Source: a virus. From it: a stretch of DNA of 64,000 nucleotides. The stretch is taken from positions 1 to 64,000 of the IMG/VR virus record IMGVR_UViG_3300030419_004676; one strand, written 5' to 3'. Both the position numbers and the translations under genes were made by a program. Positions 12,688-37,591 of the stretch are shown here, one piece after another. The stretch's first letter is position 1. Each line of letters starts with the position of its first letter. The notes under the pieces were generated by a model. The model was not told where the DNA came from and made no database searches. It was given only the letters and a program-made list of their open reading frames with translations.

Positions 12688-12695
12688 TATTTATA
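12687..12695 (+). promoter_or_regulatory. Putative late promoter motif ATATTTATA
   Basis: Recurrent intergenic motif just upstream of AGGA and ATG 12710. Confidence 0.6.
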
Positions 12696-20214: not shown

Positions 20215-20529
20215 ATGGCAACTAAGAAGAAAACAGAAACAACTGATATAAAAGATGCAAGAGATGCACTTGATAGTGGTCTTACACAAAGTGATAATTT
20301 TGCTCTGTTATTGAAGGCGTTAACAAGTATAGAAGAAAAGTTGGAGGCAATTGATTGGAAGTTATGGGAAATGTATCAAATGGGATTAAACTCAGTTAAT
20401 ACACCAGGACAACAAGTTCAACAACCAGTTCAACCAGTTCAACAACCAGCACAACCACAAGTTCAACAGAACCAATCAAATGAAAATGAGGGTGGAGTTT
20501 TAAAGAGTATATTTGGTAGTAAAAAATAA
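20215..20529 (+). CDS. Hypothetical protein with Gln/Pro-rich linker
   Basis: AAGGAG RBS; IDWKLW motif; QQPVQPVQQPAQPQ. Confidence 0.7.
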   Translation: MATKKKTETTDIKDARDALDSGLTQSDNFALLLKALTSIEEKLEAIDWKLWEMYQMGLNSVNTPGQQVQQPVQPVQQPAQPQVQQNQSNENEGGVLKSIFGSKK

Positions 20530-21983
20530 TGGCAAAACTTGGTATAGTAGTACCATATAGGGATAGAGAGGAACATTTATCAAGATTTATACCATCAATT
20601 AAAAAACATCTCAAAGATATTAATATTGATGATTATGAAATATTTGTTGTTAATCAAGATAATGATTTACCTTTCAATCGTGGATGGTTGTGTAATATAG
20701 GATTTACCTTAGCTGAAAATTCTAAGTGTGATTATGTGTGCTTTCATGATGTTGATATGTTACCTGAAGATAATTCATGTGATTACTCATGGGTAGATAG
20801 ACCAACACAATTGTCAACACGATTATCTAATAATAAATATAAATTACCATATCCAGAATATTTTGGTGGAGTAACACTTTTTCCTATTCAACATTTTAAA
20901 GTGATTAATGGTTATTCCAATGAATATTGGGGTTGGGGATTTGAAGACGATGATTTGTTATATAGATGTAGAACTGCAGGACTACCATTAGATGAGGATA
21001 TTGTATCCACACAACAATTAACAAACCCATGGGTAAAGTCTATGGATTTTAAACAAGGTGATTATATTGATGTTGATATTTCACCTTTGTGGCAAAAACT
21101 ACTTACACGAGGTTCTTATTCATTTGAAGTATGGTTACAACCATCAGATTTATTAAAGATTGATGATTCAAAATCATATGATGAATTTCATGTGTTTACT
21201 CAACCAGGTTACCATACAGGTCTTTGTTGGACAAGTGCACAACAATATAAATATGGTGTGTGGAATATGAATCACGATGAGTTTATGGTGGTTAGTCATA
21301 AAATGTCAGAACAATGGAATCATATAGTGGTGTGTGTTGATGCACCAACTAAAACATTAACGATGTATATTAATGGAGAAGAAGTTCAAAATTCACCAAC
21401 ATCTTATTTTGGTAATTTAAGAGAGATAAAAACTAAAGGTTTTTATTTAGGGTGTTCAGACCCACATACAAAAAGAGATAATAATTGGTATGAGGGTAAG
21501 ATTGCACAATTTAGTATGTGGAGAAGAACCGTAGATAGAAGAGCGGTTAGACAATTATTCAATGATGGTGTTCCATGGGATGTAACAAAACCAAAAAATG
21601 AATATTCTTTTGTAGAGGATTTATTTTGTTCATATGATTTTGAAAATATACAAAATGAAAAAGTTATAGATAAATCAAAGTATAATCATAATGGTCAGAT
21701 TATAGGTGCAATACGAAAAAAACAAGAACTTATATTGGGTGAGAAAAAATCATTACCAAGAAGAAGAGATGGTAAGTTCATTTGTTTAGAACACGAAGAA
21801 AATGGTTGGTCAAAAACAAAATTTAAAGACTGGCGTTCAAGAAATAATCAGATAAGATATTTTAATTTCGTTAGAACGGGTATAGATGATTATAAAGAAG
21901 ATGGATTATCTACATTAAAATATACAATAAAAAAACAAGAAAGTCAAGAAAAAATAAACTTTGTGAGTATAAGTAATGAGTAA
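20529..21983 (+). CDS. GT7 (beta-1,4-galactosyltransferase-like) with inserted LamG domain
   Basis: VPYRDR, FNRG, FHDVD, YFGGV, YWGWGFEDDD; LamG WNHIV/MYING. Confidence 0.9.
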   Translation: MAKLGIVVPYRDREEHLSRFIPSIKKHLKDINIDDYEIFVVNQDNDLPFNRGWLCNIGFTLAENSKCDYVCFHDVDMLPEDNSCDYSWVDRPTQLSTRLSNNKYKLPYPEYFGGVTLFPIQHFKVINGYSNEYWGWGFEDDDLLYRCRTAGLPLDEDIVSTQQLTNPWVKSMDFKQGDYIDVDISPLWQKLLTRGSYSFEVWLQPSDLLKIDDSKSYDEFHVFTQPGYHTGLCWTSAQQYKYGVWNMNHDEFMVVSHKMSEQWNHIVVCVDAPTKTLTMYINGEEVQNSPTSYFGNLREIKTKGFYLGCSDPHTKRDNNWYEGKIAQFSMWRRTVDRRAVRQLFNDGVPWDVTKPKNEYSFVEDLFCSYDFENIQNEKVIDKSKYNHNGQIIGAIRKKQELILGEKKSLPRRRDGKFICLEHEENGWSKTKFKDWRSRNNQIRYFNFVRTGIDDYKEDGLSTLKYTIKKQESQEKINFVSISNE

Positions 21984-23472
21984 AAAATTAGCAATATGTG
22001 TTCCACATTATAGAAGAAAAGAACATTTGGATGAGTTTATTCCACATATGGAAGATTTTATGAAAAAATATCATTCAGATATAGAATTTAAAATTTTTGT
22101 AGCAAATCAAATAGAACCTGATACCGTATTACGATTCAATCGTGGAACTGCAAAAAATATTGCATTTACAGAGGCAGTAAAACAAGGTTATGATTATTTT
22201 TGTTTTCACGATATAGACATGTTACCAGAAGATGAAACTTGTGATTATAGTTATCCTGAAGATAAACCACAACATATGGCAGTTCATATAAGTCAGTTTG
22301 ATTATATGTTACCATCTATTCAATATTTTGGTGGTGCAATTCTTTTTACTAAAGAACAATTTGAAAATATCAATGGATATTCTAATGATTATTGGAATTG
22401 GGGTATGGAAGATGATGATTTATTGTGGAGATGTCAACAAGAAGATTATGTAATAAATGACAAATTAGAAAAAAGTGATACAACTATTAATTCAATTGAA
22501 TTTGATGGTATCAGTTCTTATGTTGAAATCCCACCATCCGAAACTTTAAGAGATTTAACTACAGGTGATTTTACTTGGAGTATTTTGGTAAATGCATATG
22601 ATAATTTTGATATCCCTATGTATTTAATTGGTGATTTACAGAATAGAAAATATTTACACAATTATATTTTAGGAAGACCTGGTTATCAAATGGGTTTTGC
22701 ATATGATAATTCAAGAGCCTTTTCCTTTTCAATGTATGATTTTAAAAATAATCATAACTATATGTGGTTAAAAAGAAATCCTGACATATGGAGTCATCTA
22801 ATGGTAACACATGACTCTACAAATAATTCATTGAGGTTTTATCTTAATGGTCAAGAAAGTGATGCAAGATTTGGACATGGTGTTGAATCACCATTGATAA
22901 TGAAAGGTAATGCAAAAAGATATGGTGGTGTTCCATATTATTTAGGTGTAAAGAATCCAAATGAAGATAATTACTTTTATGGTAAAGTTGCACAAGTTGG
23001 TATGTGGAATCGTGTCCTTAGTGATGAAGAGATAGAAAGTTTTTATAGTAAAGATATTAGTAATTGTAATGATTTTGATGGATGTGTTTTAAATTATGAT
23101 TTTTCAAATGTAGATGAAAACTATGTATATGATATTAGTGGTAATAATAATCATGGACACAATCACGAGTGTGAAATTACAAATGAAGAATTAGACGATG
23201 TTTCACATACAATAGTTCCTTATCGTAGAAATGGTAGATTTAAATCATTGAAACATCCAATTAATGGTATTGTTAATAATAGATTTGTATTTCAAGAAGA
23301 TACAAGTAGAAATGAAAAAAGATTTTTTACTGAAGTTCAATATGGACTTTGGGATACGAAAAAAGATGGATTAACCGATTTAAAATATGAAGTTGATTCA
23401 GTTGATAAATTAGGGCGTCATGATTTTATTAATTTCAAATGTAAACATGATAATATACCAGAATGGCAGTAA
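21976..23472 (+). CDS. GT7 glycosyltransferase with inserted LamG domain
   Basis: FNRG, FHDID, YFGGA, YWNWGMEDDD; LamG WSHLM/FYLNG. Confidence 0.9.
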   Translation: MSKKLAICVPHYRRKEHLDEFIPHMEDFMKKYHSDIEFKIFVANQIEPDTVLRFNRGTAKNIAFTEAVKQGYDYFCFHDIDMLPEDETCDYSYPEDKPQHMAVHISQFDYMLPSIQYFGGAILFTKEQFENINGYSNDYWNWGMEDDDLLWRCQQEDYVINDKLEKSDTTINSIEFDGISSYVEIPPSETLRDLTTGDFTWSILVNAYDNFDIPMYLIGDLQNRKYLHNYILGRPGYQMGFAYDNSRAFSFSMYDFKNNHNYMWLKRNPDIWSHLMVTHDSTNNSLRFYLNGQESDARFGHGVESPLIMKGNAKRYGGVPYYLGVKNPNEDNYFYGKVAQVGMWNRVLSDEEIESFYSKDISNCNDFDGCVLNYDFSNVDENYVYDISGNNNHGHNHECEITNEELDDVSHTIVPYRRNGRFKSLKHPINGIVNNRFVFQEDTSRNEKRFFTEVQYGLWDTKKDGLTDLKYEVDSVDKLGRHDFINFKCKHDNIPEWQ

Positions 23473-24917
23473 CACAAGCACAGAAAGATATTGACCAACT
23501 AACAAAAACCAAGGGAAAGTTAAGTTCAGTTGGTTGTGGTATGTGTGTTGCAAAATGGATGCAAGTTACTATTCATCTACAAAATGGACATACACATTCT
23601 TGTCATCATCCAAGAACACATAAGATTCCATTAGAAGAGATAAAAGAAAATCCATCTGCATTACATAATACTTGGTATAAAAAACACGCTCGTAAACAAA
23701 TGTTAACTGATGAGAGACCTGATGAATGTGATTATTGTTGGAATGTTGAGGATAATAGTGATATATTTAGTGATAGAATTTTAAAGAGTAATGAACCTTG
23801 GGCAAAACCATTTTTTTCTGAAATTAAAAAAACTATAAATGGTCAAGATTATTTAATTGATTGGAGACAAAATGTAAATCCAAAATATGTAGAAGTGGTA
23901 TTTTCAAATGCATGTAATTTTAAATGTAGTTATTGTGCACCACATATATCTACACAATGGATGGAAGAAATCAAAAGACATGGTGGTTATCCAACTACTA
24001 CAAAATTTAATTCATTGGGTGGACTAAAATCATTAGATTTATTACCCATACCACAAAGAGAACCAAATCCATATGTAGAAGCATTTTGGAAATGGTGGCC
24101 AGAATTATATCAAGGATTACATACATTTAGAATTACAGGTGGAGAACCATTATTATCAAGAGATACATTTAAGGTATTGGATTATATTATAGAAACAGAT
24201 AAACCAAATAAAAACCTTGTGTTATCAGTTAATACTAATATGGGTGCACCAGACGAGTTGATGGATAAGTTTATTAAAAAAGTAAAGATTATTACAGAAA
24301 AAGGATTGGTTAAAGATTTTCAAATATTTACAAGTATTGATGGTTGGGGAAGAAAGGCAGAATATATTAGACATGGTTTAGATTATAGAAAGTTTTGGGA
24401 TAATTGTGAAAGGGCATTAACTGAATTAAAAAAACCATCATTAACATTTATGGTTACTTATAATGCATTATCTGTATTTAATTTTGATATATTTATAGAA
24501 CAACTCTATTTATTAAAAGAGAAATATAATTCGGAAAAAAGATATACACCAAATGCAGTTGTTGCAGATATTTCTTATTTACGACATCCATCGCATCAAA
24601 GTGTTAGAATTTTACCGAAAAGGTTTCAAGAATTGATAAAAAAACAAGTTTTATTAATGAGAAAAATTCATGATAAAGGATTTGAATCTAAACCTGATGA
24701 TGTATTTTCACATATGGAAATGGAAAAGTTACAAAGAATTTATGATTGGTGTCAAGGAAAAATAGATAGTAAAAAATTAAAAAGAGATAGATATGATTTT
24801 TATAAATTTTTCTACAATCATGATAAGAGAAGAAATACAAATATTTTAGGAGTATTTCCTGAACTGAAAGAGTTTTGGGAAGAGTGTTCAAAAATCAAAA
24901 AAGGTGATGTTATATGA
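23463..24917 (+). CDS. Radical SAM protein (twitch-like), paralog of 15627-17927
   Basis: CNFKCSYC, TGGEP, CVAKW/SCHH/CDYCW, shared AFWKWWP. Confidence 0.9.
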   Translation: MAVTQAQKDIDQLTKTKGKLSSVGCGMCVAKWMQVTIHLQNGHTHSCHHPRTHKIPLEEIKENPSALHNTWYKKHARKQMLTDERPDECDYCWNVEDNSDIFSDRILKSNEPWAKPFFSEIKKTINGQDYLIDWRQNVNPKYVEVVFSNACNFKCSYCAPHISTQWMEEIKRHGGYPTTTKFNSLGGLKSLDLLPIPQREPNPYVEAFWKWWPELYQGLHTFRITGGEPLLSRDTFKVLDYIIETDKPNKNLVLSVNTNMGAPDELMDKFIKKVKIITEKGLVKDFQIFTSIDGWGRKAEYIRHGLDYRKFWDNCERALTELKKPSLTFMVTYNALSVFNFDIFIEQLYLLKEKYNSEKRYTPNAVVADISYLRHPSHQSVRILPKRFQELIKKQVLLMRKIHDKGFESKPDDVFSHMEMEKLQRIYDWCQGKIDSKKLKRDRYDFYKFFYNHDKRRNTNILGVFPELKEFWEECSKIKKGDVI

Positions 24918-25018
24918 TAAAAATAATAAAAAAATATTACAATAAAATTAAACGATGGTATCTTTTTAAGAAGAGACTTCGTGAAATAAAAAAAAGAGAC
25001 CCGTTTATTTATAAATGA
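24914..25018 (+). CDS. 34-aa basic peptide MIKIIKKYYNKIKRWYLFKKRLREIKKRDPFIYK (missing from ORF track)
   Basis: Fills the gap exactly with ATGA overlaps at both ends; AAGGTG upstream. Confidence 0.7.
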   Translation: MIKIIKKYYNKIKRWYLFKKRLREIKKRDPFIYK

Positions 25019-26469
25019 AAATATTAGGAATTAACGCACTAAATCATGATGCATGTATCACTTTACTTGATGGTAAAGAAATATTATTTGCTGGTCATGC
25101 AGAAAGATATAGTGGTATAAAAAATGACGAATTGTTAAATCAACAATTAATCTCAGATGCAAAAAGATATGGTAAGTGGGATAAAGTTGTTTGGTTTGAA
25201 AAACCTTGGTTAAAGAAATCAAGACAATTATATGCAGGACAATATAATGAAACATTTCAGTTTCAAAATATTCCATCACAATATGTTAAACAATTTGGTA
25301 TAGATAAAATTGACCATTATGTAGGTCACCACGAATCACATGCAGCCGCCAGTTATTATTCAAGTCCATATGATGAGGCTTGTATTGTTTGTATTGATGC
25401 GATTGGTGAGTGGGATACAATGAGTATTTGGTATGCTTGGGGAAGTCACTTGGAAAAGAGATGGTCTATGTCTTATCCAAACTCACTTGGTCTTTGGTAT
25501 AGTGCCATGACACAACGACTTGGACTAAAACCACAAGAGGATGAATATATCTTAATGGGTATGGCAGCTTGGGGAAACGAAAACAAAGAACTACAAAGAG
25601 AATTACGAGAATTATTAAAAGTAAATTTACATCGTGGTTGTTTAAGTTGGGATAGTAAAGTATATCCCGATGATGATAGTGAACAATGGAAGTTTGATGT
25701 TGCACACAATGTTCAAATAATATGTGAAGAGGAAATATTAAAGATATTTGAAAAGGCAAAAGAGTTAGTCCCTGAAACAGATAACTATTGTTATGGTGGT
25801 GGTGTTGCATTAAATTGTGTTGCAAATAGTTTGATAGTAGAAAAGTATCCTAACTTATGGATACTACCAAATCCTGGTGATGGTGGTAGTTCATTAGGGT
25901 GTGCATCTTCAATTTTGGGTGAACATATAAATTTTAATAATTGTTTTTTAGGATATGATATTAAGGGTGAGTATCCTATTACTCAAGTGAGTAACGAACT
26001 ACTCAAGGGTAATATAGTTGGTGTTGCAAATGGTAGAGCAGAGTTTGGGCCAAGAGCATTGGGTAATCGTAGTTTATTGGGAGACCCACGAGGGAAAAAT
26101 ATAAAAGACCAAATGAACGAGATTAAAAACAGACAGAAGTTCAGACCATTCGCACCAAGTGTATTAGAGGAACATGCACACGAGATATTTGAAATGCCTA
26201 CAAAGAAATCTCAGTTTATGCAGTATGTTGCAAAGTGTAAGTATCCTGATAAGTATCCTGCAATATGTCATGTGGATGGGACATCAAGAGTTCAAACCGT
26301 AAGTAAAGATGATAACATTGGTTACTATAATTTAATAAAAGAGTTTTACAAAAAAACAGGTTGTCCTATGGTGTTGAATACATCATTGAATATCAAAGGT
26401 CAACCTATTGTTAATTCACATTTAGGTTCAGTTGCCTTTGAAAAAAAATATAAAGTAAAGGTTTTTTAA
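25015..26469 (+). CDS. O-carbamoyltransferase (NodU/CmcH family)
   Basis: HDAC, ERYS, HHESHAA, DAIGE, GGVALNC, EFGPRALGNRSL, RPFAP, NTSLN. Confidence 0.95.
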   Translation: MKILGINALNHDACITLLDGKEILFAGHAERYSGIKNDELLNQQLISDAKRYGKWDKVVWFEKPWLKKSRQLYAGQYNETFQFQNIPSQYVKQFGIDKIDHYVGHHESHAAASYYSSPYDEACIVCIDAIGEWDTMSIWYAWGSHLEKRWSMSYPNSLGLWYSAMTQRLGLKPQEDEYILMGMAAWGNENKELQRELRELLKVNLHRGCLSWDSKVYPDDDSEQWKFDVAHNVQIICEEEILKIFEKAKELVPETDNYCYGGGVALNCVANSLIVEKYPNLWILPNPGDGGSSLGCASSILGEHINFNNCFLGYDIKGEYPITQVSNELLKGNIVGVANGRAEFGPRALGNRSLLGDPRGKNIKDQMNEIKNRQKFRPFAPSVLEEHAHEIFEMPTKKSQFMQYVAKCKYPDKYPAICHVDGTSRVQTVSKDDNIGYYNLIKEFYKKTGCPMVLNTSLNIKGQPIVNSHLGSVAFEKKYKVKVF

Positions 26470-27263
26470 TGATATATTTTACAATTAAAATTGATGTCGC
26501 TCCTGATAAACATGATAATCATCAAGAAGTAGGTTCTCATATAAATTCCATAATAATGGTTTCTAATAAGGCGGGGTCTACTTTTGTTAGTGAGTGTGTA
26601 AAATGGTGTTATCATGACCAACACTTTATGTTAGATTCTCGGTCAGCGGTGAATGCATGGTTGTTCAGTTCAATGAAAAGGGAAGTTTATGATAATGCTA
26701 CTAAATTATTTGTAAAAAGAAATCCATATGAAAGGTTTTTATCGGTTTGGACATTTGGACACAAAAATGACCCATCTTCTGGTACTAACTATAATGACCC
26801 TGGTAAGAGAATGTGGGAAACTCACAAAGAATATAACAAATATAAACCAAGTGAATTGAAACCCAACATGAATCTATTATCTATGACAAAAAAGGATTGG
26901 CAAAAAAGTTTTGAAGAGTTTTGTGTCTCATGGGATAAGGGTGAAATTTATGATGCACATGCACATTTAATGTCAAAAGATTTACATTTATTTCCAGAAG
27001 ACACTTTTGAATTTGTAGAAATTTCTGAATTATATAATTCAAAAATATATAACAAATTATTTATGGAAGATGCACATAGGCCAGTAGACGAGTATATTAG
27101 TCACCCAGGTGATGATGGTATTACTGATATCACTCGTAATATAAATCCATCAAACAGATATTTATCAAATTGGAAAGATTATTATAATGATAATACAAAA
27201 GAATTAGTATATAAATTTATGAAACAAGACTTTGAAAACTTAAATTATAGTGAAGATTTTTAA
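26469..27263 (+). CDS. Sulfotransferase (Sulfotransfer_2-like)
   Basis: 5'-PSB NKAGST, 3'-PB RNPYERFLS, C-terminal DFENLNY. Confidence 0.75.
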   Translation: MIYFTIKIDVAPDKHDNHQEVGSHINSIIMVSNKAGSTFVSECVKWCYHDQHFMLDSRSAVNAWLFSSMKREVYDNATKLFVKRNPYERFLSVWTFGHKNDPSSGTNYNDPGKRMWETHKEYNKYKPSELKPNMNLLSMTKKDWQKSFEEFCVSWDKGEIYDAHAHLMSKDLHLFPEDTFEFVEISELYNSKIYNKLFMEDAHRPVDEYISHPGDDGITDITRNINPSNRYLSNWKDYYNDNTKELVYKFMKQDFENLNYSEDF

Positions 27264-27272
27264 ACCTTTTTT

Positions 27273-27281
27273 ATATTTATA
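27273..27281 (+). promoter_or_regulatory. Putative late promoter motif ATATTTATA
   Basis: Recurrent motif immediately upstream of the structured leader. Confidence 0.6.
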
Positions 27282-27285
27282 TATA

Positions 27286-27406
27286 AGTCAGGTAGTGCTA
27301 ACACTCTTCGGAGAAAGTCCTAACCCACTACTTTAGACTATAAAACAAGGGTGGCATTTAAATAGTTTTACTATTATAGATGCCTCTAATTATTGGAGGC
27401 TTTTTT
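27286..27406 (+). ncRNA. Structured 5' leader RNA (attenuator/riboswitch-like, family not recognised)
   Basis: Stems AGTC/GACT, GTAGTG/CACTAC, CTC-TTCG-GAG; 14-bp hairpin 27353-27384 overlapping a terminator-like hairpin. Confidence 0.55.
27382..27406 (+). terminator. Intrinsic terminator-like hairpin that also sequesters the GGAGG SD
   Basis: GCCTCTAA-TTA-TTGGAGGC then TTTTTT, directly followed by ATG 27407. Confidence 0.6.
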
Positions 27407-28372
27407 ATGCGAATATTAATTACAGGTGGAGCTGGATATTTAGGTTCAGTAATCACAAGACAATTATTGTTACATCATACGGTAACCGTAATAGACAATT
27501 TGATGTATAATCAAACATCATTATTAGATTTATTTGGTAAACCAGGTTTTAAGTTTATCTATGGGGATGTTCGTGATACAAATTTATTACTTAAACAAGT
27601 AAAAGAACATGATGTAATAATTCCACTTGCAGCCATTGTCGGATTTCCAAGTTGTGAAAAAGATAAACAACTTGCAACTGATATCAATTTTAATCAAATC
27701 AAAAATATTGTAGATAATTTATCAAAACATCAACGAATACTATATCCAAATACCAATAGTGGTTATGGTAGTAGAACTAATAAAGGTGAAGTAGATGAAA
27801 CAAATTCACTAACACCAATCAGTCATTATGGTATTACAAAGTGTGATTCAGAAAATTATATAAAAGATAATAGTAATGGAATAACATTTAGATTAGCTAC
27901 CGTGTTTGGTGTATCAAGTCGTATGAGATTAGATTTATTAGTTAATGAATTTGTATATAAATTATTAACAGATAAATATATTACTATTTTTGAAAAAGAG
28001 TTTGTTCGTAATTTTATTCACATTCAAGATGTTGCATCGGTATTTAATTATATGTGTATAAAATATGATGAGTATCATAATCAAATATTTAATGTGGGAT
28101 TATCAGACACTAATATAAATAAAAAACAATTAGTAGAAAGAATACAAAAATATATCCCTGATACATCAGTAACTTATTCAGATTATTTTGTAGACCCTGA
28201 TAAAAGAGATTATATTGTAAGTAATAAAAAAATAGAGTCAACAGGTTGGTCACCTAACTTTAGTTTAGATGATGGTATACAAGAATTAATAAAGGCATAT
28301 CAAATGATTGTTCCACATGAAAGTTCACATTATAGAAATGCATTCCCACTAAGTTATGGTGCATCATTATGA
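27407..28372 (+). CDS. NAD-dependent nucleotide-sugar epimerase/dehydratase
   Basis: TGGAGYLG, YGITK (YxxxK), RLATVFG. Confidence 0.9.
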   Translation: MRILITGGAGYLGSVITRQLLLHHTVTVIDNLMYNQTSLLDLFGKPGFKFIYGDVRDTNLLLKQVKEHDVIIPLAAIVGFPSCEKDKQLATDINFNQIKNIVDNLSKHQRILYPNTNSGYGSRTNKGEVDETNSLTPISHYGITKCDSENYIKDNSNGITFRLATVFGVSSRMRLDLLVNEFVYKLLTDKYITIFEKEFVRNFIHIQDVASVFNYMCIKYDEYHNQIFNVGLSDTNINKKQLVERIQKYIPDTSVTYSDYFVDPDKRDYIVSNKKIESTGWSPNFSLDDGIQELIKAYQMIVPHESSHYRNAFPLSYGASL

Positions 28373-28875
28373 CATTTCCATACGATAGAATTGAATCAGA
28401 TATTTTACCAGAAGTAATAATGTTTAAACCAACACCACATATGGACTATCGTGGTGAAATGTGGACATATTGGGAAAATACATATGAAACACCAAAAGAA
28501 AAAATATCTAAATTTACTCGTTCAAGAAAAAATGTATTAAGAGGTTTACATGGGGACAGAGAAACTTGGAAACACATTACTTGTGTTTATGGTGAAATAT
28601 ATTTAGTGGTTGTAGATTATAGAGAAGATAGTGTAAATTATCTAACTTGGGAGAGTTATTTGATATCAGATAGAAATCATTTAAGTGTATTAGTTCCACC
28701 AGGTTTTCTAAATGGACATTTATGTTTATCAGACGAGTGTGTATTTCACTATACACAATCTTATCCAAACGAGTATGTAGATACCAATGAACAAATTAGT
28801 CTTAAATGGAATGACCCAATGTTAAAAATTCAATGGCCAATAAATAATCCAATATTATATGGGAGAGATAAATGA
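28369..28875 (+). CDS. rmlC: dTDP-4-dehydrorhamnose 3,5-epimerase-like cupin
   Basis: DYRG, VLRGLH, VVVD.R, VPPGFLNGH, WNDP...WP. Confidence 0.85.
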   Translation: MTFPYDRIESDILPEVIMFKPTPHMDYRGEMWTYWENTYETPKEKISKFTRSRKNVLRGLHGDRETWKHITCVYGEIYLVVVDYREDSVNYLTWESYLISDRNHLSVLVPPGFLNGHLCLSDECVFHYTQSYPNEYVDTNEQISLKWNDPMLKIQWPINNPILYGRDK

Positions 28876-29567
28876 GTGTAAAAATACCAAAACATATTTT
28901 AGATGGTGGAGTTATTAGAGAAATAACTTTAACTAAACAAGATTTAATTGATTTTGAAAAAGAAGTTGCAGATTCGTATAATGATGGTGAAATAACAGCA
29001 CCTGTTCATCTTGCATCAAATAATGAAGAACAATTAATAGAGGTTTTTCAGTATGTAAGTGAAATGGATTGGGTATTTTGTAGTTGGAGAAATCATTATC
29101 ATGCACTATTACATGGTATAGATAAAGATAATCTAATGAGACAGATTAAGAATGGTAAGAGTATGAGTGTTAATCATTTTTATTCTGAAGATATGAGTTC
29201 ACATCCAATTACAAGACAATGGAAATTTTATTCTTCATCTATTGTTGGTGGAACTTTACCAATTGCATTAGGAGTTGCATTATCTATAAAAAGAGACAAT
29301 AAAGAACATCGTGAAAATAAATTACCTAAAGTTTGGTGTTTTGTTGGAGATATGACTTTTGAAAGTGGTATCTTTCATGAAGTATATAAATATGCTCGTA
29401 ATAATGATTTACCATTGGAGTTTGTAGTTGAGGATAATAATCTCTCTACAAATACACCTACTGATGAAACTTGGGGAAAGAAACAAGATGTTCCTGATGA
29501 TGTGATTTATTATAAATATAAAAGTGATTACCCACACCACGGAACTGGCACTTGGGTTATGTTTTAG
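28872..29567 (+). CDS. TPP-dependent dehydrogenase E1 alpha-like subunit (short)
   Basis: PVHL, SWRNHYH, SSIVGG, GDMTFESG...EDN TPP motif. Confidence 0.85.
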   Translation: MSVKIPKHILDGGVIREITLTKQDLIDFEKEVADSYNDGEITAPVHLASNNEEQLIEVFQYVSEMDWVFCSWRNHYHALLHGIDKDNLMRQIKNGKSMSVNHFYSEDMSSHPITRQWKFYSSSIVGGTLPIALGVALSIKRDNKEHRENKLPKVWCFVGDMTFESGIFHEVYKYARNNDLPLEFVVEDNNLSTNTPTDETWGKKQDVPDDVIYYKYKSDYPHHGTGTWVMF

Positions 29568-29575
29568 GAGAAATT

Positions 29576-31084
29576 ATGTTAGATATATTACCATTTAAAT
29601 ACTCATCACAAAAACTTGAATTAAAGGAATTCCATCATGGGAAAAAACCAAGAACAAGAGATGAGTTAAATTCATACTATGATACAAAAGATTATCTATA
29701 TGAAGTTACTCGTGAAGACCAATATGGAAATGCATTATCACAAATGTATTATTATTATGATGGTGGTCGTGGTAAATTTAAAGTTCATCATACAGAACAT
29801 TTTTTAGGAAAAAATAAACCTTATTTGATTTATGTTGAATATCAACCTGACTCTTCTTCTCCAGGCCCATCAAGACAAATGAAATTTGTTTTATCTAAAG
29901 CACTTGGAAAACAACATATTGATAATATAAAAAGTGGTAGAGCAAAAATATGGTTTGATTGTACACCTGAAGAGAGAGTTCACGCAGAAGAAATTAACGA
30001 TGATAATATATCCAAATTAATGAAATTTCTTGATAAAAATAAAATTCCACAAGAATCAATATTATATACAGATGGTGATTTACTTGTAGATGAGTTATTT
30101 GAAAAATATGGAAAAGTAAATACAAAAGTTTTACCATTACATATGAATAATGCATGGGAATCTTTTGAAAGATTTGCAAAAGATAATATGTGGTCAAGGT
30201 TAATTGTAAATCAAGAATACTTTTTAAGACCTAAACATTTTATGTTTAATAATTTTATGCCAAGAACTGCAAGAACTATATTAATGTCAAAATTAGTTAA
30301 ATCTGGAATATACAAAAAAGGATTCTGTTCATTTCAGGATATTGGAAAAGATGGTAATATATTTTTTCCATCCATGGGTGATGCATCATTTGATGATAGG
30401 TCATTTAACATATATCAGATATGTCGGACTGGAGATGTAAAAGGTTTTGATAAATACTTAGATATTTTAAGACCTGTATTACCTTTATCACATGATATGG
30501 TGGGTATAAAACAAGAAGATACTTTAGATAATTTAGATTATACTACTGCACGAATTGATGATGCAATGACATTGGTTCATTCATATGATAGTGCATTAGA
30601 AGATAAGGGTAAAAGAGTATTAACACATTATGATAGTACTTATGGGCCGTATTATAATCCTATTTCATATCTTAATGTTTATTTTGATGTATGTGCAGAA
30701 ACATTTTCAGGTGGATTTGGTGATTATGATATTGAACCATTAGGGCCTGTATTTACAGAAAAAATATGGAGACCACTTGCACTTGGTACACCATTTATTC
30801 CTATTGCAGAACCAGGTAGTGTTAGAGCTTTAAAAAAACTTGGATTTAAATTGTATGATAAGATGTTTGATTATTCATTTGATGACGAAAAAGATGGACA
30901 TAAGAGAATTGAAATGATTTATGATAATATAAAAAGATTAACCGATATGTCAAGAGATGAATTACATAAATTAACTTATCAACATAAAAAAGACATGGTA
31001 TACAACCATGAATATTTTATTAATGATTTTTATCACAATGTATATAATAATCATTTAGAATTTTTAAATGGATGGGTAAAATGA
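29576..31084 (+). CDS. 'TEK' family putative glycosyltransferase (GT10-like C-terminus)
   Basis: VCAET...FTEKIWRP...PFI...LGFK...FDYSFD; AGGAG before ATG 29576. Confidence 0.6.
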   Translation: MLDILPFKYSSQKLELKEFHHGKKPRTRDELNSYYDTKDYLYEVTREDQYGNALSQMYYYYDGGRGKFKVHHTEHFLGKNKPYLIYVEYQPDSSSPGPSRQMKFVLSKALGKQHIDNIKSGRAKIWFDCTPEERVHAEEINDDNISKLMKFLDKNKIPQESILYTDGDLLVDELFEKYGKVNTKVLPLHMNNAWESFERFAKDNMWSRLIVNQEYFLRPKHFMFNNFMPRTARTILMSKLVKSGIYKKGFCSFQDIGKDGNIFFPSMGDASFDDRSFNIYQICRTGDVKGFDKYLDILRPVLPLSHDMVGIKQEDTLDNLDYTTARIDDAMTLVHSYDSALEDKGKRVLTHYDSTYGPYYNPISYLNVYFDVCAETFSGGFGDYDIEPLGPVFTEKIWRPLALGTPFIPIAEPGSVRALKKLGFKLYDKMFDYSFDDEKDGHKRIEMIYDNIKRLTDMSRDELHKLTYQHKKDMVYNHEYFINDFYHNVYNNHLEFLNGWVK

Positions 31085-31875
31085 TAGGACATAGTGGTGT
31101 TTATTGGACAGCATCTTTAGTAAATTTATTTGGTAAAGAAAATATCAGAGTAGTTCAGATTGGTGCATGGAATGGTCATGAAACAAATCAGATTGCATCT
31201 ATGGTTAGACAATGGGATGGTGAGTTAATTGTAATTGATTGGTTTAAGGGTAACATATCTGTAACTGATGATAGTGATATAAAATATGATGAAGACCATG
31301 TTGAAGAAAATAAAAAATTATTTTGGAGTAATATAGAACCTAAAAATAAAAAAGTTATTGATTTAAGAGTTGGTAATTCAAATGATTTAATTAAAGATAT
31401 TGAAGACGATTCTATTGATATATTTCATATTGATGGTGCACATGAGTATTCTATAGTTAAAAAGGATATTGAACTTGGATATCCAAAAGTAAAAGTAAAT
31501 GGATTTATGTGTGGTGATGACTATTCAGGTGATTATCATATAAATAGAGTTGGTGAACTTAATAAAAAGTATTTAGAAGTAGATACAATTAATGGATATG
31601 GATATGAACATATAAATGGTGATATCATACCTAATATACATGCAGGTGTTATTAAGGCAGTCTATGAATATTTTGATAAAGGAGATATAATGTTTAATCT
31701 ACCACAGGCGAAGTGGTTACATTGGAAGAAACCTAACTCTGAAGTAGGTTATAATATGGAATCATTTACAAAGGGATTGAGATATGAAGGCAGTATATTG
31801 GATGAGTTTAATCCTGATGAAGAAATAGAAGAAATAAAAAATACACCTGCTTTTGGAAGTGAGTTTAATAAATGA
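31072..31875 (+). CDS. Class I SAM methyltransferase
   Basis: VQIGAWNG, IDWF, FHIDGAHEY, CGDDY. Confidence 0.8.
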   Translation: MGKMIGHSGVYWTASLVNLFGKENIRVVQIGAWNGHETNQIASMVRQWDGELIVIDWFKGNISVTDDSDIKYDEDHVEENKKLFWSNIEPKNKKVIDLRVGNSNDLIKDIEDDSIDIFHIDGAHEYSIVKKDIELGYPKVKVNGFMCGDDYSGDYHINRVGELNKKYLEVDTINGYGYEHINGDIIPNIHAGVIKAVYEYFDKGDIMFNLPQAKWLHWKKPNSEVGYNMESFTKGLRYEGSILDEFNPDEEIEEIKNTPAFGSEFNK

Positions 31876-32513
31876 AATATATCGGTAATAGAGAACATCC
31901 AATAAACACAATTACAAGATATTATGCAGGTGATAATTCACATGATGTAGATTATTTTTTCAATGAGTATGGATATAGATACGATGGTTCAGATAAATGG
32001 TATGATAATAATTTAGTTGTTATTGGTGATAGTTTTACTTTTGGATTGGGTTTAAATATAGAGGATACTTGGTCACATAAATTATCAGAAAAGCTGAATT
32101 GTAATTTAATTAATTTATCTCAAGGGTCATGTTCAAATGAATATATTTATAATACTTTGAAAAGAGAATTACCAAAAATTAAAAATGTAAAATGTGTAAT
32201 TGTTTATTTTACATATCATCATCGTTTTGATTTCATAGAAGAACCAGGAGGCCCATGGAATTCTAAATGGAAAAAGTTAATTACTTTAATTGGAGAAGAA
32301 AAATTAAAAAGTATGAGTGAAAATTTTATTGAATCTACAAAAATATTATTAAAAGATATACCAAATTTTTTATATTCAGTTGAAGATTCAAAACATTTAG
32401 ATAATAAAATAAGACTAACTTATGATGATTATTCAAATAATAAAACTCATCCAGGTAAAGAATCAAATGATATTTTTTTTAAAAAAATTTATGAGGTAAT
32501 AAAGAATGTATAA
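31872..32513 (+). CDS. SGNH-like hydrolase/acyltransferase
   Basis: GDSFTFG, NLSQG, THPG. Confidence 0.75.
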   Translation: MKYIGNREHPINTITRYYAGDNSHDVDYFFNEYGYRYDGSDKWYDNNLVVIGDSFTFGLGLNIEDTWSHKLSEKLNCNLINLSQGSCSNEYIYNTLKRELPKIKNVKCVIVYFTYHHRFDFIEEPGGPWNSKWKKLITLIGEEKLKSMSENFIESTKILLKDIPNFLYSVEDSKHLDNKIRLTYDDYSNNKTHPGKESNDIFFKKIYEVIKNV

Positions 32514-33165
32514 TAAAATTTATGTAAATGGAGCAAGTTGGGTTCAAGGTATGGGAGTTGAAAGAAATGAAGTTTTTAGTTATCATTTGGCAAAACTTTT
32601 AGAGTGTGAAGAACTAAACATTGCAGAGGGTGGTGCATCCAATGATTGGGTAATTAGACAAACCATAGATTATGTTTTGGAAAATAATCCAAAGAATCAC
32701 TTATTTGTATTAGGTTTTGCAGGTTATTTTAGATGGGATATTTGGGATGATATAAAGAAAAAATGGGAAAAGGGACACCCAATGAGTTTTTTAGAAAAAT
32801 CTTTATTTGATAAAGAAGTAAAAGATAATGGTTTAGAGTATGCAAAACATTGGAAATATTTTGTAGAAAATTTTTATAATGAAAAAATAATGAGAGATAA
32901 ATTTGTTAGAGATATACATTTGTTAGAATCATTTTTTGAGGTTAGAAATATTGATTACATTTTATTTGATACAACATCAGGTATATTGAAAGAGGTTCCA
33001 AATACTTTTAAAAATTTTGTTGATTTAAGTTGGGAAGATTTTTGTGGTGGAAGACATAGATTTGATTCAGGTGAGTATATTAGTTCAGAAGATGGCCATC
33101 CAAATTCTAACAACCATAAAAAGTGGTCAAAATATTTGTATGATATTATAAAGGAGAAAAAATGA
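32506..33165 (+). CDS. SGNH-like hydrolase/acyltransferase
   Basis: NGASWVQG, GGASN, DGHPN. Confidence 0.75.
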   Translation: MYNKIYVNGASWVQGMGVERNEVFSYHLAKLLECEELNIAEGGASNDWVIRQTIDYVLENNPKNHLFVLGFAGYFRWDIWDDIKKKWEKGHPMSFLEKSLFDKEVKDNGLEYAKHWKYFVENFYNEKIMRDKFVRDIHLLESFFEVRNIDYILFDTTSGILKEVPNTFKNFVDLSWEDFCGGRHRFDSGEYISSEDGHPNSNNHKKWSKYLYDIIKEKK

Positions 33166-34076
33166 AAGCTTTAATAATAGGTGGTAGAGGAATGGTTGGA
33201 AGACAACTTGTTGAGTTGTGTTCTAAAGTTTATGATGAAGTTTGTGTTGCAGATATAGGTTATAGTATTCCACAAGATTTACCAGATAATGTTGATTATG
33301 AACCTTGTGATATGACCTTTAAAACTAATGCAAGTATCGTTGCAGATTATAATCATGTTTATCACTTGGCAGGAATTAAAGGTTCACCATTAAGAGTAAA
33401 GGAATCACCTGCCGATTATTTACCTATGTTACAATTTGATACCAATGTTATACAGGCAATTGGTCAATGGAAACCAGATTGGTTTCTTTACACAAGTTCA
33501 ATTGGTGTTTATCCACCAAGTGAATTTTATAATGAAGATGATGTGTGGGATAAAGTTCCAAGTCCAAATGATAAAATCCCTGCATACATAAAACGAATGG
33601 GAGAGTTAAGTTGTGAGGCTATTAGTATTACAGACGATTATAAAAATATATCCATTGTTAGACCAGCAAACATATACGGCCCTTTTGATAATTTTGGTGA
33701 TGAATCTACCGTGATTGCATCAATGATTAAAAAAGGTTATCATGATGATGTTATAAATGTTTGGGGAGATGGAACACCAATACGAGATTTCATATATTCA
33801 AAAGATGTAGCTCGTGGTATGTTACATATGGTTCAGAATAAAGTAAATGATGTAGTGAATCTTGGTAGTGGTGAAGAAGTTAGAATATCAGATATCGCCA
33901 GTGTGATTGGGACATACTTTGGAACAGAGATAGAGTATGATTTGACAAAACCAAATGGTGATATGAGAAGACAAATGAATACAGATAGAATGAAATCATA
34001 TGGGTTTGAAAGAGAATATACATTACAAATGGGTTTAACAGAAACAATAGAATATTATGAGGAGTTACAAAAATGA
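33162..34076 (+). CDS. NAD-dependent epimerase/reductase (GDP-fucose synthase-like SDR)
   Basis: GGRGMVG, YIKR, RPANIYGP, VWGDGTPIRDF. Confidence 0.9.
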   Translation: MKALIIGGRGMVGRQLVELCSKVYDEVCVADIGYSIPQDLPDNVDYEPCDMTFKTNASIVADYNHVYHLAGIKGSPLRVKESPADYLPMLQFDTNVIQAIGQWKPDWFLYTSSIGVYPPSEFYNEDDVWDKVPSPNDKIPAYIKRMGELSCEAISITDDYKNISIVRPANIYGPFDNFGDESTVIASMIKKGYHDDVINVWGDGTPIRDFIYSKDVARGMLHMVQNKVNDVVNLGSGEEVRISDIASVIGTYFGTEIEYDLTKPNGDMRRQMNTDRMKSYGFEREYTLQMGLTETIEYYEELQK

Positions 34077-35113
34077 TTTACATATTAGATAATGGAGATA
34101 TGTTTCCTAAGTTATTGAAAACAATAACAAAATGGTTAGATTATGAAGTAAAAGAAATACCAGACCTTAAGTTTGAATATCAAAAAAGTGATATATTAAT
34201 ATTAAATGGTGAACATTTTACAGAATTATATCATAAAAGTAAAGATGAGTTATGGGAAAAATTTAAAAAAATACAAATACCAATTATAATAATAATTGAT
34301 GATTCTGCATTGGGTTGGGGCCCAACTAAAATGCATGTTGTTGATAATAGACCTATTTATATTTTAACACCATCAATTGGAACAGATATACCTAAGTTTG
34401 GAGTTCAACCAAATGATGATAATTTTAATTATTTATTAACACATATAATAGAAAATAGTGACGAAAATGTTACCGAACAATTACTTGAAAGTGGTAAAAG
34501 TTTTTTAAGAAGTAAATACTTTCTTTCTTTAAATAGAGAACCAAAACCACATAGAGATTTTTTATATAATTTTATTGATACAAATAATCTATATTCAAAA
34601 TTTTATTATTCTTATACTAAAAAGAAAAACCCTATATTTTTAGATGGTGATAAAGACTGGGGTAGATATTCAATATTAGACCCAACAGATATAAATTATG
34701 TTAAACATTATGATTCATACTTTAGTGTTATTACTTTACCAGAATATGAAAAAGGACATTTTCATTTTATTGATGAAAAAATGTGGAAACCTATATTAAG
34801 TCATCAACCATTTATTCTTTTGGGTGCACCTTTTTATTTAAAAACTTTAAAATCGTTTGGATTTCAAACTTTTTATGATTTGATTGATGAGTCATATGAT
34901 AATATGATTAATGATAAACAAAGATGGAACAGAGCGTGTGTAGAAATTAAAAAACTTTCAAAAACACCTATAAGTAAAATCCATGAATGGTATTATAGTT
35001 CTGATACACAATCAAAATTAAAACATAATTATAATGTTGCAAAAAAAATGTCTTGGCAACAAAGAGAAAAAATTTCAACTTTAATAGAAGATTTACAAGA
35101 TTACGATGTATAA
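34073..35113 (+). CDS. 'TEK' family putative glycosyltransferase
   Basis: FLSLNREPKPHR, SYFSVI, IDEKMWKP, PFI, GFQTF, DESYD. Confidence 0.6.
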   Translation: MIYILDNGDMFPKLLKTITKWLDYEVKEIPDLKFEYQKSDILILNGEHFTELYHKSKDELWEKFKKIQIPIIIIIDDSALGWGPTKMHVVDNRPIYILTPSIGTDIPKFGVQPNDDNFNYLLTHIIENSDENVTEQLLESGKSFLRSKYFLSLNREPKPHRDFLYNFIDTNNLYSKFYYSYTKKKNPIFLDGDKDWGRYSILDPTDINYVKHYDSYFSVITLPEYEKGHFHFIDEKMWKPILSHQPFILLGAPFYLKTLKSFGFQTFYDLIDESYDNMINDKQRWNRACVEIKKLSKTPISKIHEWYYSSDTQSKLKHNYNVAKKMSWQQREKISTLIEDLQDYDV

Positions 35114-36233
35114 CGGATATCATTTTGATAAATTAATAATTAATCACTTGCAAGATTATAAAATACATTTTATGACCTTTGAAGATGTCTATGCCGATAA
35201 AAACATTGAGGTAGATTCTTTTGATTATATTATTTTGTCACATGAATTTGAAGTATCAAATACTAAATTATTTGAAGACTTACATAACTATTTTGATAAA
35301 AAATTAATAGAGTTGGATAAAGTTATTTTAGTTATGGGTGACTTTTCTTTAGAAGAAAAATATAATAATTTTTGTAATAATAATAACTTTTACAAGTATA
35401 AACCTAAACTTAATATGTTGAGTGCATTTTTTATGGAAATTTGTATTAGAGATAATTTTGAAATCTCTTGGTATCTTGAATATAAAAAGAATATCTTAAA
35501 CGACCTTAATAATATTCGTAAATCTTACCAATTAAAGCCTAAAAGATTCTTATCAATGAATGGTACATTAAAACCACATCGTGAAAAGTTTATATCATAT
35601 ATAAAAAAACATCAGTTAACAGATTATATAGATTATTCAGAGTTACAATCAGGTATGCCTGTAGATAAATATAATTTTAACGATAAAAAAATAAAAAGAT
35701 TTATTGAACAACAGGAAAAACAAATTGATACAAGAGTTGATATACAAGATATGAATAAAGATATAGATAAAACTTTTCATTTAAATTATGTTTATGGAGA
35801 TAGTCAATGGAAGATTCCTGGACAAGAAAATCTATATCAATTGTATAAGAATTATAATATAGATATTATTTCAGAGAGTGAAGCTAATCATGATGATAGT
35901 TTATTTTTTACTGAAAAAACTTTACGACCTTTATATTTTGGATTACCATTTTTAATGATTGGTAATAAAAATATGTTAAGTAATTTACAAGAAATGGGAT
36001 ATGCAACTTATGATAATATATTTGATGAATCTTATGATAAACTTGATTCTTGGAGAGATAGACTTGAACATGTATCATCTGAAGTAAATAGATTTTGTAG
36101 TATGAATCAATCTGAATTTACTTTACAAATGCACAAAGCTACTGATAATATATTACATAATGTTCATCATTTTTTTCAAAATGATTATGAATTAAAAAGA
36201 ATTGAAAGAAAACTTGGAGAGATAGTCTCATGA
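35106..36233 (+). CDS. 'TEK' family putative glycosyltransferase
   Basis: FLSMN...PHR, IISES, FTEKTLRP, PFL, DESYD. Confidence 0.6.
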   Translation: MYNGYHFDKLIINHLQDYKIHFMTFEDVYADKNIEVDSFDYIILSHEFEVSNTKLFEDLHNYFDKKLIELDKVILVMGDFSLEEKYNNFCNNNNFYKYKPKLNMLSAFFMEICIRDNFEISWYLEYKKNILNDLNNIRKSYQLKPKRFLSMNGTLKPHREKFISYIKKHQLTDYIDYSELQSGMPVDKYNFNDKKIKRFIEQQEKQIDTRVDIQDMNKDIDKTFHLNYVYGDSQWKIPGQENLYQLYKNYNIDIISESEANHDDSLFFTEKTLRPLYFGLPFLMIGNKNMLSNLQEMGYATYDNIFDESYDKLDSWRDRLEHVSSEVNRFCSMNQSEFTLQMHKATDNILHNVHHFFQNDYELKRIERKLGEIVS

Positions 36234-37591
36234 AAGTATTAATATTTGATGGATACACCGATAATTTATTTAGAATCTTTTTTAATCATGATTCAAGACT
36301 AAATGTGAAGACTCACTACCAACAAAGAGAGGATTCAGATGGTTCTCAAATCTATAATGAAAAAGATTGGGATATTTTAGTAATGTCATTGTTTGATGTA
36401 GATAACCATTTTTCACAAGAAAATTCTACAGAAAACATTAAAAATATGAAACGATTAATTAATAACTCAAATTCTCAATTTAAAATATTCATAGATGGTT
36501 TAGGTGAGGGTTGTGACATCGGAAGGAGATGGGGCCAATTATTTGATTTTTGTGATAACTTAGATATTGACCCAAATACAATTAATTTATTTTTAACAAC
36601 TATGAATGTTGAAGAAAGTTATAATGAATGGAAAAAGTCGGACACCTTAAGAAATTTAAAATTTGCGAAAAATTTTATTTATAATGAAAAAATACCATTC
36701 AACTGGTATGATAATGACTTTTTATCATTTGTATATTTTAGTGTTAATAGGTTTATAAATAAAGATAATAAAGTTACCACTATGGGTGGAGAATATAATA
36801 AATTATATGAAAAGGATGGATTGTTTTTAAAACCTAATCGTCAATTAAGAGATTATAAAATTCTATCACTTGTTGCAAATCCAATGACACATAGGGTTAT
36901 TGTTCAGAATCATTTACTAAAAAATCAATATGACAAACAAGGATTAATTAGTTTTAATGATAATTTACAAAATATTGTGAATAGTCGGGGTCAAAAAATA
37001 GACCATGTTGTTTGTGATACAAGAGTTTTGAAAGAATTTAATTTATTGGAGTATTTTAATAAAGAATTTTTAAATAGAATACCAATTAGAATAGATTGGG
37101 AAGAATTTAATAATTCACAATCCTTTCTTGGTCGTTATAGTCCTAATTATGATTTTTATAACAACTCATACTTTAGTGTTGTATGTGAGACAAATTATGA
37201 GATGGAGTTTGACAATGACACTTATTCATATCATTTACCAATATTCTTAACAGAAAAAACTTTAAATGCATTATGGTCATATCATCCATTCATTATAGTG
37301 AATCACAAACATAGTTTAAAGAAATTAAGAGAATTGGGATTTGAAACTTTTCCAGAATTATTTGATGAAAGTTATGATGAGGAGTTTGACCCACAAAAAA
37401 GATTAAAAATGGTTTTATCAGAAATAGATAGAGTGATGAAACTTGATAAAAAAGAATTACATAAAATTTATTGGAGTATGGAAGATAAATTTATACATAA
37501 TAGAAATGTTATACTTGATATAGTGTTGAATCAAACACCAAATGTATATGAAGACTTAAACAAAATATTAGGAATCGGGGATACGGTATGA
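36230..37591 (+). CDS. 'TEK' family putative glycosyltransferase
   Basis: THR, SYFSVVCET, LTEKT, HPFI, GFETF, DESYD. Confidence 0.6.
   Translation: MKVLIFDGYTDNLFRIFFNHDSRLNVKTHYQQREDSDGSQIYNEKDWDILVMSLFDVDNHFSQENSTENIKNMKRLINNSNSQFKIFIDGLGEGCDIGRRWGQLFDFCDNLDIDPNTINLFLTTMNVEESYNEWKKSDTLRNLKFAKNFIYNEKIPFNWYDNDFLSFVYFSVNRFINKDNKVTTMGGEYNKLYEKDGLFLKPNRQLRDYKILSLVANPMTHRVIVQNHLLKNQYDKQGLISFNDNLQNIVNSRGQKIDHVVCDTRVLKEFNLLEYFNKEFLNRIPIRIDWEEFNNSQSFLGRYSPNYDFYNNSYFSVVCETNYEMEFDNDTYSYHLPIFLTEKTLNALWSYHPFIIVNHKHSLKKLRELGFETFPELFDESYDEEFDPQKRLKMVLSEIDRVMKLDKKELHKIYWSMEDKFIHNRNVILDIVLNQTPNVYEDLNKILGIGDTV

Follow-up and report, generated by a model that had tools for sequence, protein, structure and literature searches.

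A Conserved Leader with a Predicted Pseudoknot and Two Competing Hairpins: A Candidate Riboswitch-Like Attenuator of a Glycan Gene Block in an Uncultured T4-Like Virus

The Leader and Its Gene Neighbourhood

The 64,000-nucleotide (nt) stretch of DNA analysed here (positions 1 to 64,000 of IMG/VR record IMGVR_UViG_3300030419_004676, hereafter the window) belongs to a 72-kb fragment of an uncultured virus that is about 29% complete and whose terminase and portal genes match those of the T4-like kind. All open reading frames (ORFs) of at least 100 amino acids (aa) in its gene chain lie on the + strand. The element under study, referred to as the leader, occupies a 143-nt gap (27264-27406) between a sulfotransferase-like gene (26469-27263) and a gene for a NAD-dependent sugar epimerase/dehydratase (SDR). 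The latter is the first of 17 co-oriented ORFs that run from 27407 to 44728 and form a 17.3-kb nucleotide-sugar and glycan block, in which the gaps between ORFs never exceed 20 nt. The leader ends with a terminator-like hairpin (H3) whose U tract runs straight into the ATG of the SDR gene and, since no later promoter site follows, the 17 downstream genes would depend on read-through of H3. The start of the SDR gene is placed at 27407 instead of at the in-frame ATG at 27380, because 1-nt insertions or deletions lie between the two ATGs in the related copy L004.

The features of the leader are collected in Table 1. The pairings described in an initial annotation of this DNA (AGTC/GACT, the cUUCGg hairpin, the 14-bp hairpin, and H3), together with GGAGG, T6, and the ATG, are all found where they had been placed. 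That annotation also took the leader gap for the longest non-coding gap, whereas it is the second longest, after a 215-nt gap at 837-1051 in which no + strand ORF of at least 25 aa was found. The longer gap contains a short hairpin (ATAGAG..CTCTAT) with a T-rich run behind it, as well as a 14-nt palindrome, ACTTATTAATAAGT, immediately 5' of a 2851-aa ORF.

Table 1. Features of the leader and the first gene of the block (window coordinates).
Feature	Positions	Strand	Remarks
Promoter-like motif TATTTATATA	27274-27283	+	Conservation between relatives starts exactly here; placement in gaps
Domain 1 (P1, P2, P3)	27286-27339	+	Covariation in relatives
P1, AGUC with GACU	27286-27289 with 27336-27339	+	Unvarying in 19/19 distinct sequences
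P2, GUAGU with ACUAC	27292-27296 with 27327-27331	+	Compensatory changes at 4/5 pairs
P3, CUC-UUCG-GAG	27304-27313	+	Compensatory changes at 3/5 pairs
Conserved internal-loop strands of domain 1, UAAC and GAAAGNCCNANC	27299-27302 and 27313-27324	+	
Pseudoknot P4, 5' strand CCC	27324-27326	+	Pairs with GGG 27349-27351
Pseudoknot P4, 3' strand GGG	27349-27351	+	One base 5' of hairpin H2; covariation
A-rich linker AUAAAACAA between P1 and P4	27340-27348	+	UAUAA core identical in 22/22 aligned sequences
Hairpin H2, 14 bp and one bulged A (27376)	27353-27384	+	Candidate antiterminator and anti-sequestrator
Hairpin H3, GCCTCTAA/TTGGAGGC	27382-27400	+	Terminator-like; terminator scan
Shine-Dalgarno GGAGG	27395-27399	+	Enclosed by H3 arms GCCUCUAA/UUGGAGGC
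GCC common to H2 and H3	27382-27384	+	
U6 tract	27401-27406	+	Directly 5' of ATG 27407
First gene of the block, SDR	27407-28372	+	Pfam PF01370, E = 1.9e-27

The Promoter-Like Motif

The core of the promoter-like motif, TAYTTATA, is located 3-7 nt 5' of helix P1 in every copy of the leader that was read, and takes the form TATTTATT in the variant copy L065. The window contains 15 + strand copies of TATTTATA, six of which (at 12688, 14886, 25006, 27274, 44729, and 53312) are situated in short intergenic gaps just 5' of gene starts, a placement that backs the promoter motif proposed before the leader in the initial annotation. At 25006 and 53312, an ATG follows only 2-4 nt on; these starts would then be leaderless or spaced differently.

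The late promoter of T4 consists of TATAAATA at about -10. TATTTATA is likewise a short, AT-only motif that, in a T4-like phage, immediately precedes virion and glycan genes of the late type. However, the motif before the leader is TATTTATA and not TATAAATA, so that it does not qualify as a late promoter of the T4 type, and the 11 + strand copies of TATAAATA in the window are all within ORFs. TATTTATA is, on these sequence grounds, a candidate phage promoter motif distinct from that of T4.

Distribution of the Leader and the Genes That It Precedes

Copies of the leader were found on 23 IMG/VR contigs (the window's own included), 12 metagenome contigs, and one contig of a metagenome-assembled genome (MAG). 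Among the 49 loci in IMG/VR that are related to the SDR gene, only four (80-93% protein identity) carry the leader directly upstream; the stretch from TATTTATA to the ATG is almost invariant in these four, while the flanking codons differ. At the remaining 45 loci, the gene abuts its neighbour. A pattern scan with free stems returned 12 metagenome contigs, all of them true copies, including L065, with altered stems, and L061 and L068, with the leader 5' of an RmlC-like gene. Covariance model R1, applied to 36 whole records of SDR relatives (a set without L019, L022, L046, and L049), yielded another six strong copies (E from 1e-13 to 1e-9), which sit elsewhere in the genome than the SDR relative, and looser patterns combined with a second model, R2, added eight more contigs. 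Moreover, R2 found four quite divergent copies in the records of 34 further relatives and, with E up to 0.001, no match in the other 30, which include all five near-complete genomes; many of the records are fragments, for which a missing match does not establish absence. The element occurs once per record, with a single match in the window and a single strong match in each R1-positive record.

Several candidates were rejected. Among the R1 matches with E > 0.01, the one assessed, L081 (23.5 bits), was judged false on account of its coding-like sequence, absent promoter motif, and non-standard pairs. L054, the only match of a mis-spaced pattern scan, is within the coding sequence of an unrelated phage, and six of the ten stretches from another pattern scan (L054-L059) are chance matches without the flanking helices. 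A blastn search ('distant') of 26400-28400 against phage GenBank records gave no match. The MAG copy, L073 (NZZP01000015.1, 6009-6133), lies on a 14.7-kb contig with phage-like glycan genes that was binned in a Gammaproteobacteria MAG, which is either a weak hint of the host or a binning artefact.

The first gene downstream of the leader varies. Within the 22 aligned copies, it encodes an SDR of the window's type (PF01370) in seven, a GDP-mannose-dehydratase-type SDR (PF16363) in five, an RmlC-like cupin (PF00908) in five, a DUF6071 protein in four, and a protein with a weak Transket_pyr match in one, as assigned with Pfam for ten of the genes and by inspection of the N-terminus for the others. 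The leader precedes, in this way, five gene families that are all part of the phage glycan island, i.e., a single coherent gene set of the kind expected downstream of a riboswitch.

Covariation in Domain 1 and the Pseudoknot P4

The structure of the leader was examined in an alignment of 22 of the roughly 36 copies, with 19 distinct rows, in which pairs were counted against a written-down structure; the identical or nearly identical copies L043, L063, L066 (at a contig end), L068-L073, L077, L079, L105, and L107 were excluded. Standard pairs occupy 97.7% of 301 cells, versus 82.1% in shuffles and 36-47% with slid partners, and compensatory changes are found at 9 of the 17 pairs, a number reached by none of 500 shuffles. 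Conservation and covariation in relatives, whose absence had been named in the initial annotation as the outcome that would count against its reading, are thus clearly present, and domain 1 has the covariation-backed structure that is expected of a riboswitch sensor. In particular, UAUGAU/AUCAUA replaces GUAGUG/CACUAC at P2 in copies L112 and L113, and P3 varies in both length and loop, with UUCG in the window and GAAA, loops of 7-8 nt, or a 22-nt inserted hairpin (L094) elsewhere. The unpaired parts show the opposite behaviour, since about 25 bases (UAAC, GAAAGNCCNANC, the linker, and GGNGGCA) remain constant across lineages with altered helices. The support for domain 1 is this covariation and not folding energy. 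The gap as a whole folds with z = -2.66 relative to shuffles.

The initial annotation had missed the pseudoknot P4, which, as judged from sequence, would connect domain 1 to the downstream hairpins. Two of its three pairs show compensatory changes: 27326-27349 is C-G in 13 sequences, G-C in 4, and U-A in 1, while 27325-27350 is C-G in 18 and U-A in 1. These columns are absent from the covariance models, and the alignment was not fitted to P4. The 5' strand of P4 continues directly into the 3' strand of P2 and, therefore, the pseudoknot is predicted to be of the H type. The letters of the GTAGTG/CACTAC helix that had been proposed earlier are present, but its innermost pair, G27297-C27326, is better read as the P4 pair C27326-G27349. 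An additional A27323-U27352 pair was rejected, with two of nine cells unpaired and an A at 27352 in several sequences. The linker AUAAAACAA may have a groove-binding role.

The covariation also indicates the strand. The G-U pairs, nine of them at one P3 pair, and a C-to-U change in L004 would turn into C-A mismatches if the minus strand were read, which argues for an RNA from the + strand. The leader is, on this evidence, a conserved + strand RNA. A reading in which no such element exists, and the signal arises from a minus-strand RNA, from a coding extension that starts at ATG 27380, or from chance pairing in AT-rich DNA, is highly improbable and already contradicted. Although the minus-strand fold of domain 1 has more pairs (-15.3 versus -11.9 kcal/mol), the mismatches just mentioned oppose this orientation; the coding extension, although in frame with the gene, conflicts with the L004 indels; and chance pairing does not account for a covariation that none of the 500 shuffles and none of the slid registers reaches.

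The pattern of constraint bears as well on a second alternative, namely that the leader is a constitutive structured 5' untranslated region (UTR) that senses nothing and protects the mRNA end or fixes a low level of read-through and translation, with the hairpin and U run mainly insulating the block from upstream transcription. The predicted 5' end at the base of a stable helix, the generic terminator shape of H3, and the fact that no effector is known would be in line with such a role. Nevertheless, the unpaired bases are conserved where the helices have changed sequence, the pseudoknot covaries, and the overlap between the two downstream hairpins is kept through compensating changes. Since this constraint exceeds what a stabiliser needs, a purely constitutive UTR seems rather unlikely.

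The Competing Hairpins H2 and H3

Hairpins H2 and H3 were counted in 19 distinct single-module copies anchored at the H2/H3 ends, a set that excludes the tandem copies L061, L068, and L094. In the window, both are more stable than shuffles (z = -4.9 for H2 and z = -3.8 for H3, with none of 200 shuffles equally good in either case). The stem of H2 ranges from 6 to 15 bp in relatives and its inner sequence is free, while its six basal pairs are standard in all 114 cells, including U-A to C-G changes; the same count for the six basal pairs of H3 gives 113 out of 114. The Shine-Dalgarno sequence is inside H3 in every copy. In 18 of the 19 sequences, H3 leads into a U run, with the start codon 0-7 nt beyond, and a terminator scan returned the G+C-rich hairpin at 27382-27400 together with T6 as a predicted intrinsic terminator. 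L080 is the exception: it retains the Shine-Dalgarno hairpin but lacks the U run, as would suit gating at the level of translation within an uninterrupted mRNA.

The three bases common to H2 and H3 are shared in 19 of 19 copies, in agreement with the competition through GCC that had been put forward in the initial annotation. The middle one is U instead of C in seven copies, where it forms a G-U pair in H2 and faces A (six copies) or G (one copy) in H3. The shared base keeps both pairings when it varies and, therefore, meets what a toggle needs. In addition, the states with H2 closed and with H3 closed differ by no more than 1.6 kcal/mol in all 18 sequences compared, nine of which show a difference of at most 0.2. 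The terminator/Shine-Dalgarno hairpin and the alternative helix are mutually exclusive, as in the expression platform of a riboswitch. An extension of H2 (G27350/G27351 with C27386/U27387) was rejected as not conserved, with A-C in L078. Tandem variants occur in L061 (2703-2858), L068 (10367-10522), and L094 (1325-1503), where H2 shares its GCC with a pure terminator, after which come a second stretch similar to an H2 arm and the Shine-Dalgarno hairpin with its U run.

This arrangement has to be weighed against processive antitermination of the HK022 put or Bacillus eps-associated type, in which the nascent RNA binds its own polymerase and makes it resistant to H3 and to later terminators, so that only transcription begun at the leader promoter enters the long glycan operon and no ligand is sensed. 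The leader is directly 3' of the promoter-like motif and directly 5' of one terminator-like hairpin (two in L061/L068 and L094), it heads a 17.3-kb block without internal gaps, and tandem terminators would be more easily explained in this manner; the precedent of a putRNA acting alone on polymerase is given in a passage of PMC9378689. However, antitermination leaves unexplained the three-base sharing between H2 and H3, with both pairings kept in 19 of 19 copies at near-equal energies, and the L080 hairpin without a U run. Moreover, a consensus scan for terminators gave no additional convincing candidate within the block, and no Rfam family of that kind matched. By analogy with these systems, antitermination may be considered, but it appears unlikely.

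RNA Libraries

Eight runs labelled as RNA contained 4-13% of the sampled words, and contigs from four of them (X1-X4) were compared with the window. X1, a marine metatranscriptome, provided one 156-nt contig with a depth of 3.7 that is identical to the window and covers only 27266-27412 of 26900-27900; it offers only a hint of a leader RNA that outlasts its mRNA. X3 provided contigs at 27301-27440, 27301-27410, and 27393-27537, while X2 and X4 gave only fragments of the coding sequence of relatives. At depths of 3-4, neither ends nor strand nor level can be read from such contigs, DNA carry-over is possible, and the uncovered parts are uninformative.

These contigs touch on a further alternative, an independent, trans-acting small RNA of roughly 120 nt, with its own promoter and a terminator that overlaps the ribosome-binding site only as a result of genome compactness. 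The element is bracketed by the promoter-like motif and the terminator-like hairpin, three variants carry tandem terminators, and the X1 contig, although thin, is restricted to the leader within 1001 nt. Nevertheless, a small RNA would leave the 17 downstream genes without another promoter site, the U run is absent in L080, the element keeps its place at the start of the sugar block whichever of the five gene types comes first, and the 27301-27440 contig, from an oligo-dT RNA run, bridges H3 into the gene. A function in trans is, thus, distinctly unlikely.

Favoured Reading and Proposed Mechanism

With moderate confidence, we favour the reading that the leader acts in cis, as a riboswitch-like attenuator and gate of translation, on the 17-gene nucleotide-sugar/glycan block. 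The attenuator or riboswitch proposed in the initial annotation stands insofar as a riboswitch- or attenuator-like leader acting in cis is the best reading, in view of its conservation, its association with five sugar-gene families, the covariation, and the GCC overlap, while the switching itself is what we infer.

Transcription would start a few bases past TATTTATA, so that the RNA begins at helix P1. The first ~66 nt would then fold into a compact sensor that consists of P1, P2, and P3 plus P4, the latter formed by the loop CCC with the downstream GGG, and the A-rich linker would run back along P1/P2. P4 ends one base 5' of H2, and H2 and H3 contend for the same GCC. When fully formed, H3 would act as an intrinsic terminator just 5' of the ATG and would bury the Shine-Dalgarno sequence, whereas full closure of H2 would deprive H3 of three G-C pairs. 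Thus, an effector that sets the state of the sensor would bias the toggle and, with it, the amount of transcription and translation that enters the 17-gene block. We think that a metabolite is a more likely effector than a protein. With its likeness to the Shine-Dalgarno strand, GGGNGGC can hold some of the anti-Shine-Dalgarno bases when P4 is open, and the polarity leans weakly towards the formed pseudoknot being the off state; however, this GGGNGGC extension is not conserved and the energy differences are too small for a decision.

Several observations weigh against this reading. Firstly, P4 has only 3 bp, one of which is an A-C mismatch in L104. Secondly, domain 1 alone is not significantly more stable than shuffles (z = -0.98) and is not reproduced in the minimum-free-energy fold of the whole gap, and the shuffle controls overstate the significance of the covariation, as the sequences are related. 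Moreover, a pairing of CCACU 27325-27329 with GGUGG 27350-27354, considered as the switch, was rejected, as it is broken by the changes in L065, which keep P4 instead. The two hairpin states are about equal in energy, so that the polarity cannot be derived from thermodynamics, and under a two-state logic the tandem variants would keep their second Shine-Dalgarno hairpin formed in either state. Lastly, the sole metatranscriptome contig over the leader extends 20 nt upstream of the proposed start.

A narrower proposal is that the leader represents a new riboswitch class with a pseudoknotted aptamer for a nucleotide-sugar or for a keto-sugar intermediate of the pathway that it precedes, which we regard as a tentative possibility and would still consider doubtful. 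If it is true, the phage would adjust the production of its virion glycan to the sugar-nucleotide pool of the host; to our knowledge, this would be the first riboswitch for a nucleoside diphosphate (NDP)-sugar, and one that exists only in viruses. More generally, binding of a metabolite would imply a new ligand class and phages that regulate their own surface glycosylation by sensing, while an action on polymerase would make the leader a new put-like element. Either way, it would offer an entry point to the control of a large auxiliary pathway in uncultured T4-like phages.

Other Features of the Window

Further observations concern the genes around the leader. The 97-nt gap at 24918-25014, before a carbamoyltransferase gene, has AGAGACCCGTTTATTTATAA at its 3' end, and the distant relative L036 carries the similar GAGAGACCCTTTTATTTATAA 5' of its SDR gene (upstream of 3001). 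In two adjacent paralogues at 20529-23472, glycosyltransferase family 7 domains occur together with a Laminin_G_3 lectin-like domain; family 7 comprises glycosyltransferases of the beta-1,4-galactosyltransferase type, which are mostly eukaryotic. In addition, 16525-17376 and 23515-24387, about 7 kb apart, have three stretches (239, 159, and 41 nt) in common at 71-77% identity, which connect the radical-SAM-containing ORFs at 15627-17927 and 23463-24917. A scan for tRNA and tmRNA genes gave no match.

Comparison with Known RNA Elements

In accordance with the initial annotation, which had not recognised the RNA family, no family of Rfam 15, including wcaG (RF01761) and manA (RF01745), matches the window at the gathering score. 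Likewise, no match was obtained in the 501 nt around the leader (27100-27600) with E up to 10, or in five divergent copies (L075, L077, L078, L080, and L065) with E up to 1. A literature search, whose scope did not extend to supplements such as the motif alignments of PMC2864571, found no description of the leader motif.

The riboswitches SAM-II/SAM-V and preQ1-II combine H-type pseudoknot aptamers with terminator or Shine-Dalgarno platforms. The leader resembles them in the succession of a compact pseudoknotted 5' domain, an A-rich strand, and mutually exclusive hairpins that would govern termination and access to the Shine-Dalgarno sequence, but no Rfam family resembles it in sequence or by model, and its associated genes are nucleotide-sugar tailoring genes, for which we know of no validated riboswitch class.

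The RNAs of the antitermination type offer a second comparison. The eps-associated RNA, or epsC motif, of Bacillus heads polysaccharide genes, according to a passage of PMC2864571. Like this RNA and HK022 put, the leader is a structured, promoter-proximal RNA that precedes terminators and opens a long operon. The differences are that no model matches and that those elements need no alternative pairing of the terminator, in contrast to the conserved H2/H3 overlap of the leader.

The closest likeness in setting is that to wcaG and manA, two orphan riboswitch candidates that are nearly confined to T4-like phages and marine metagenomes (Weinberg et al. 2010, PMC2864571) and are located in the 5' UTRs of exopolysaccharide or sugar-metabolism genes (PMC2864571, PMC9602691). 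The leader shares with them the 5' UTR of sugar genes in marine T4-like phages and differs in its separate fold, its different pseudoknot, and its strictly conserved terminator/Shine-Dalgarno platform. As far as sequence and model comparison can tell, its fold appears to be absent from the catalogues of RNA families and unrelated to wcaG and manA despite the common setting. These two motifs have been without ligands since 2010, and the leader adds to them an unrelated fold with a clean, testable architecture, which comprises a small predicted pseudoknotted domain, a candidate three-base toggle, a terminator-like hairpin that ends at the start codon, and a putatively dependent 17-gene operon.

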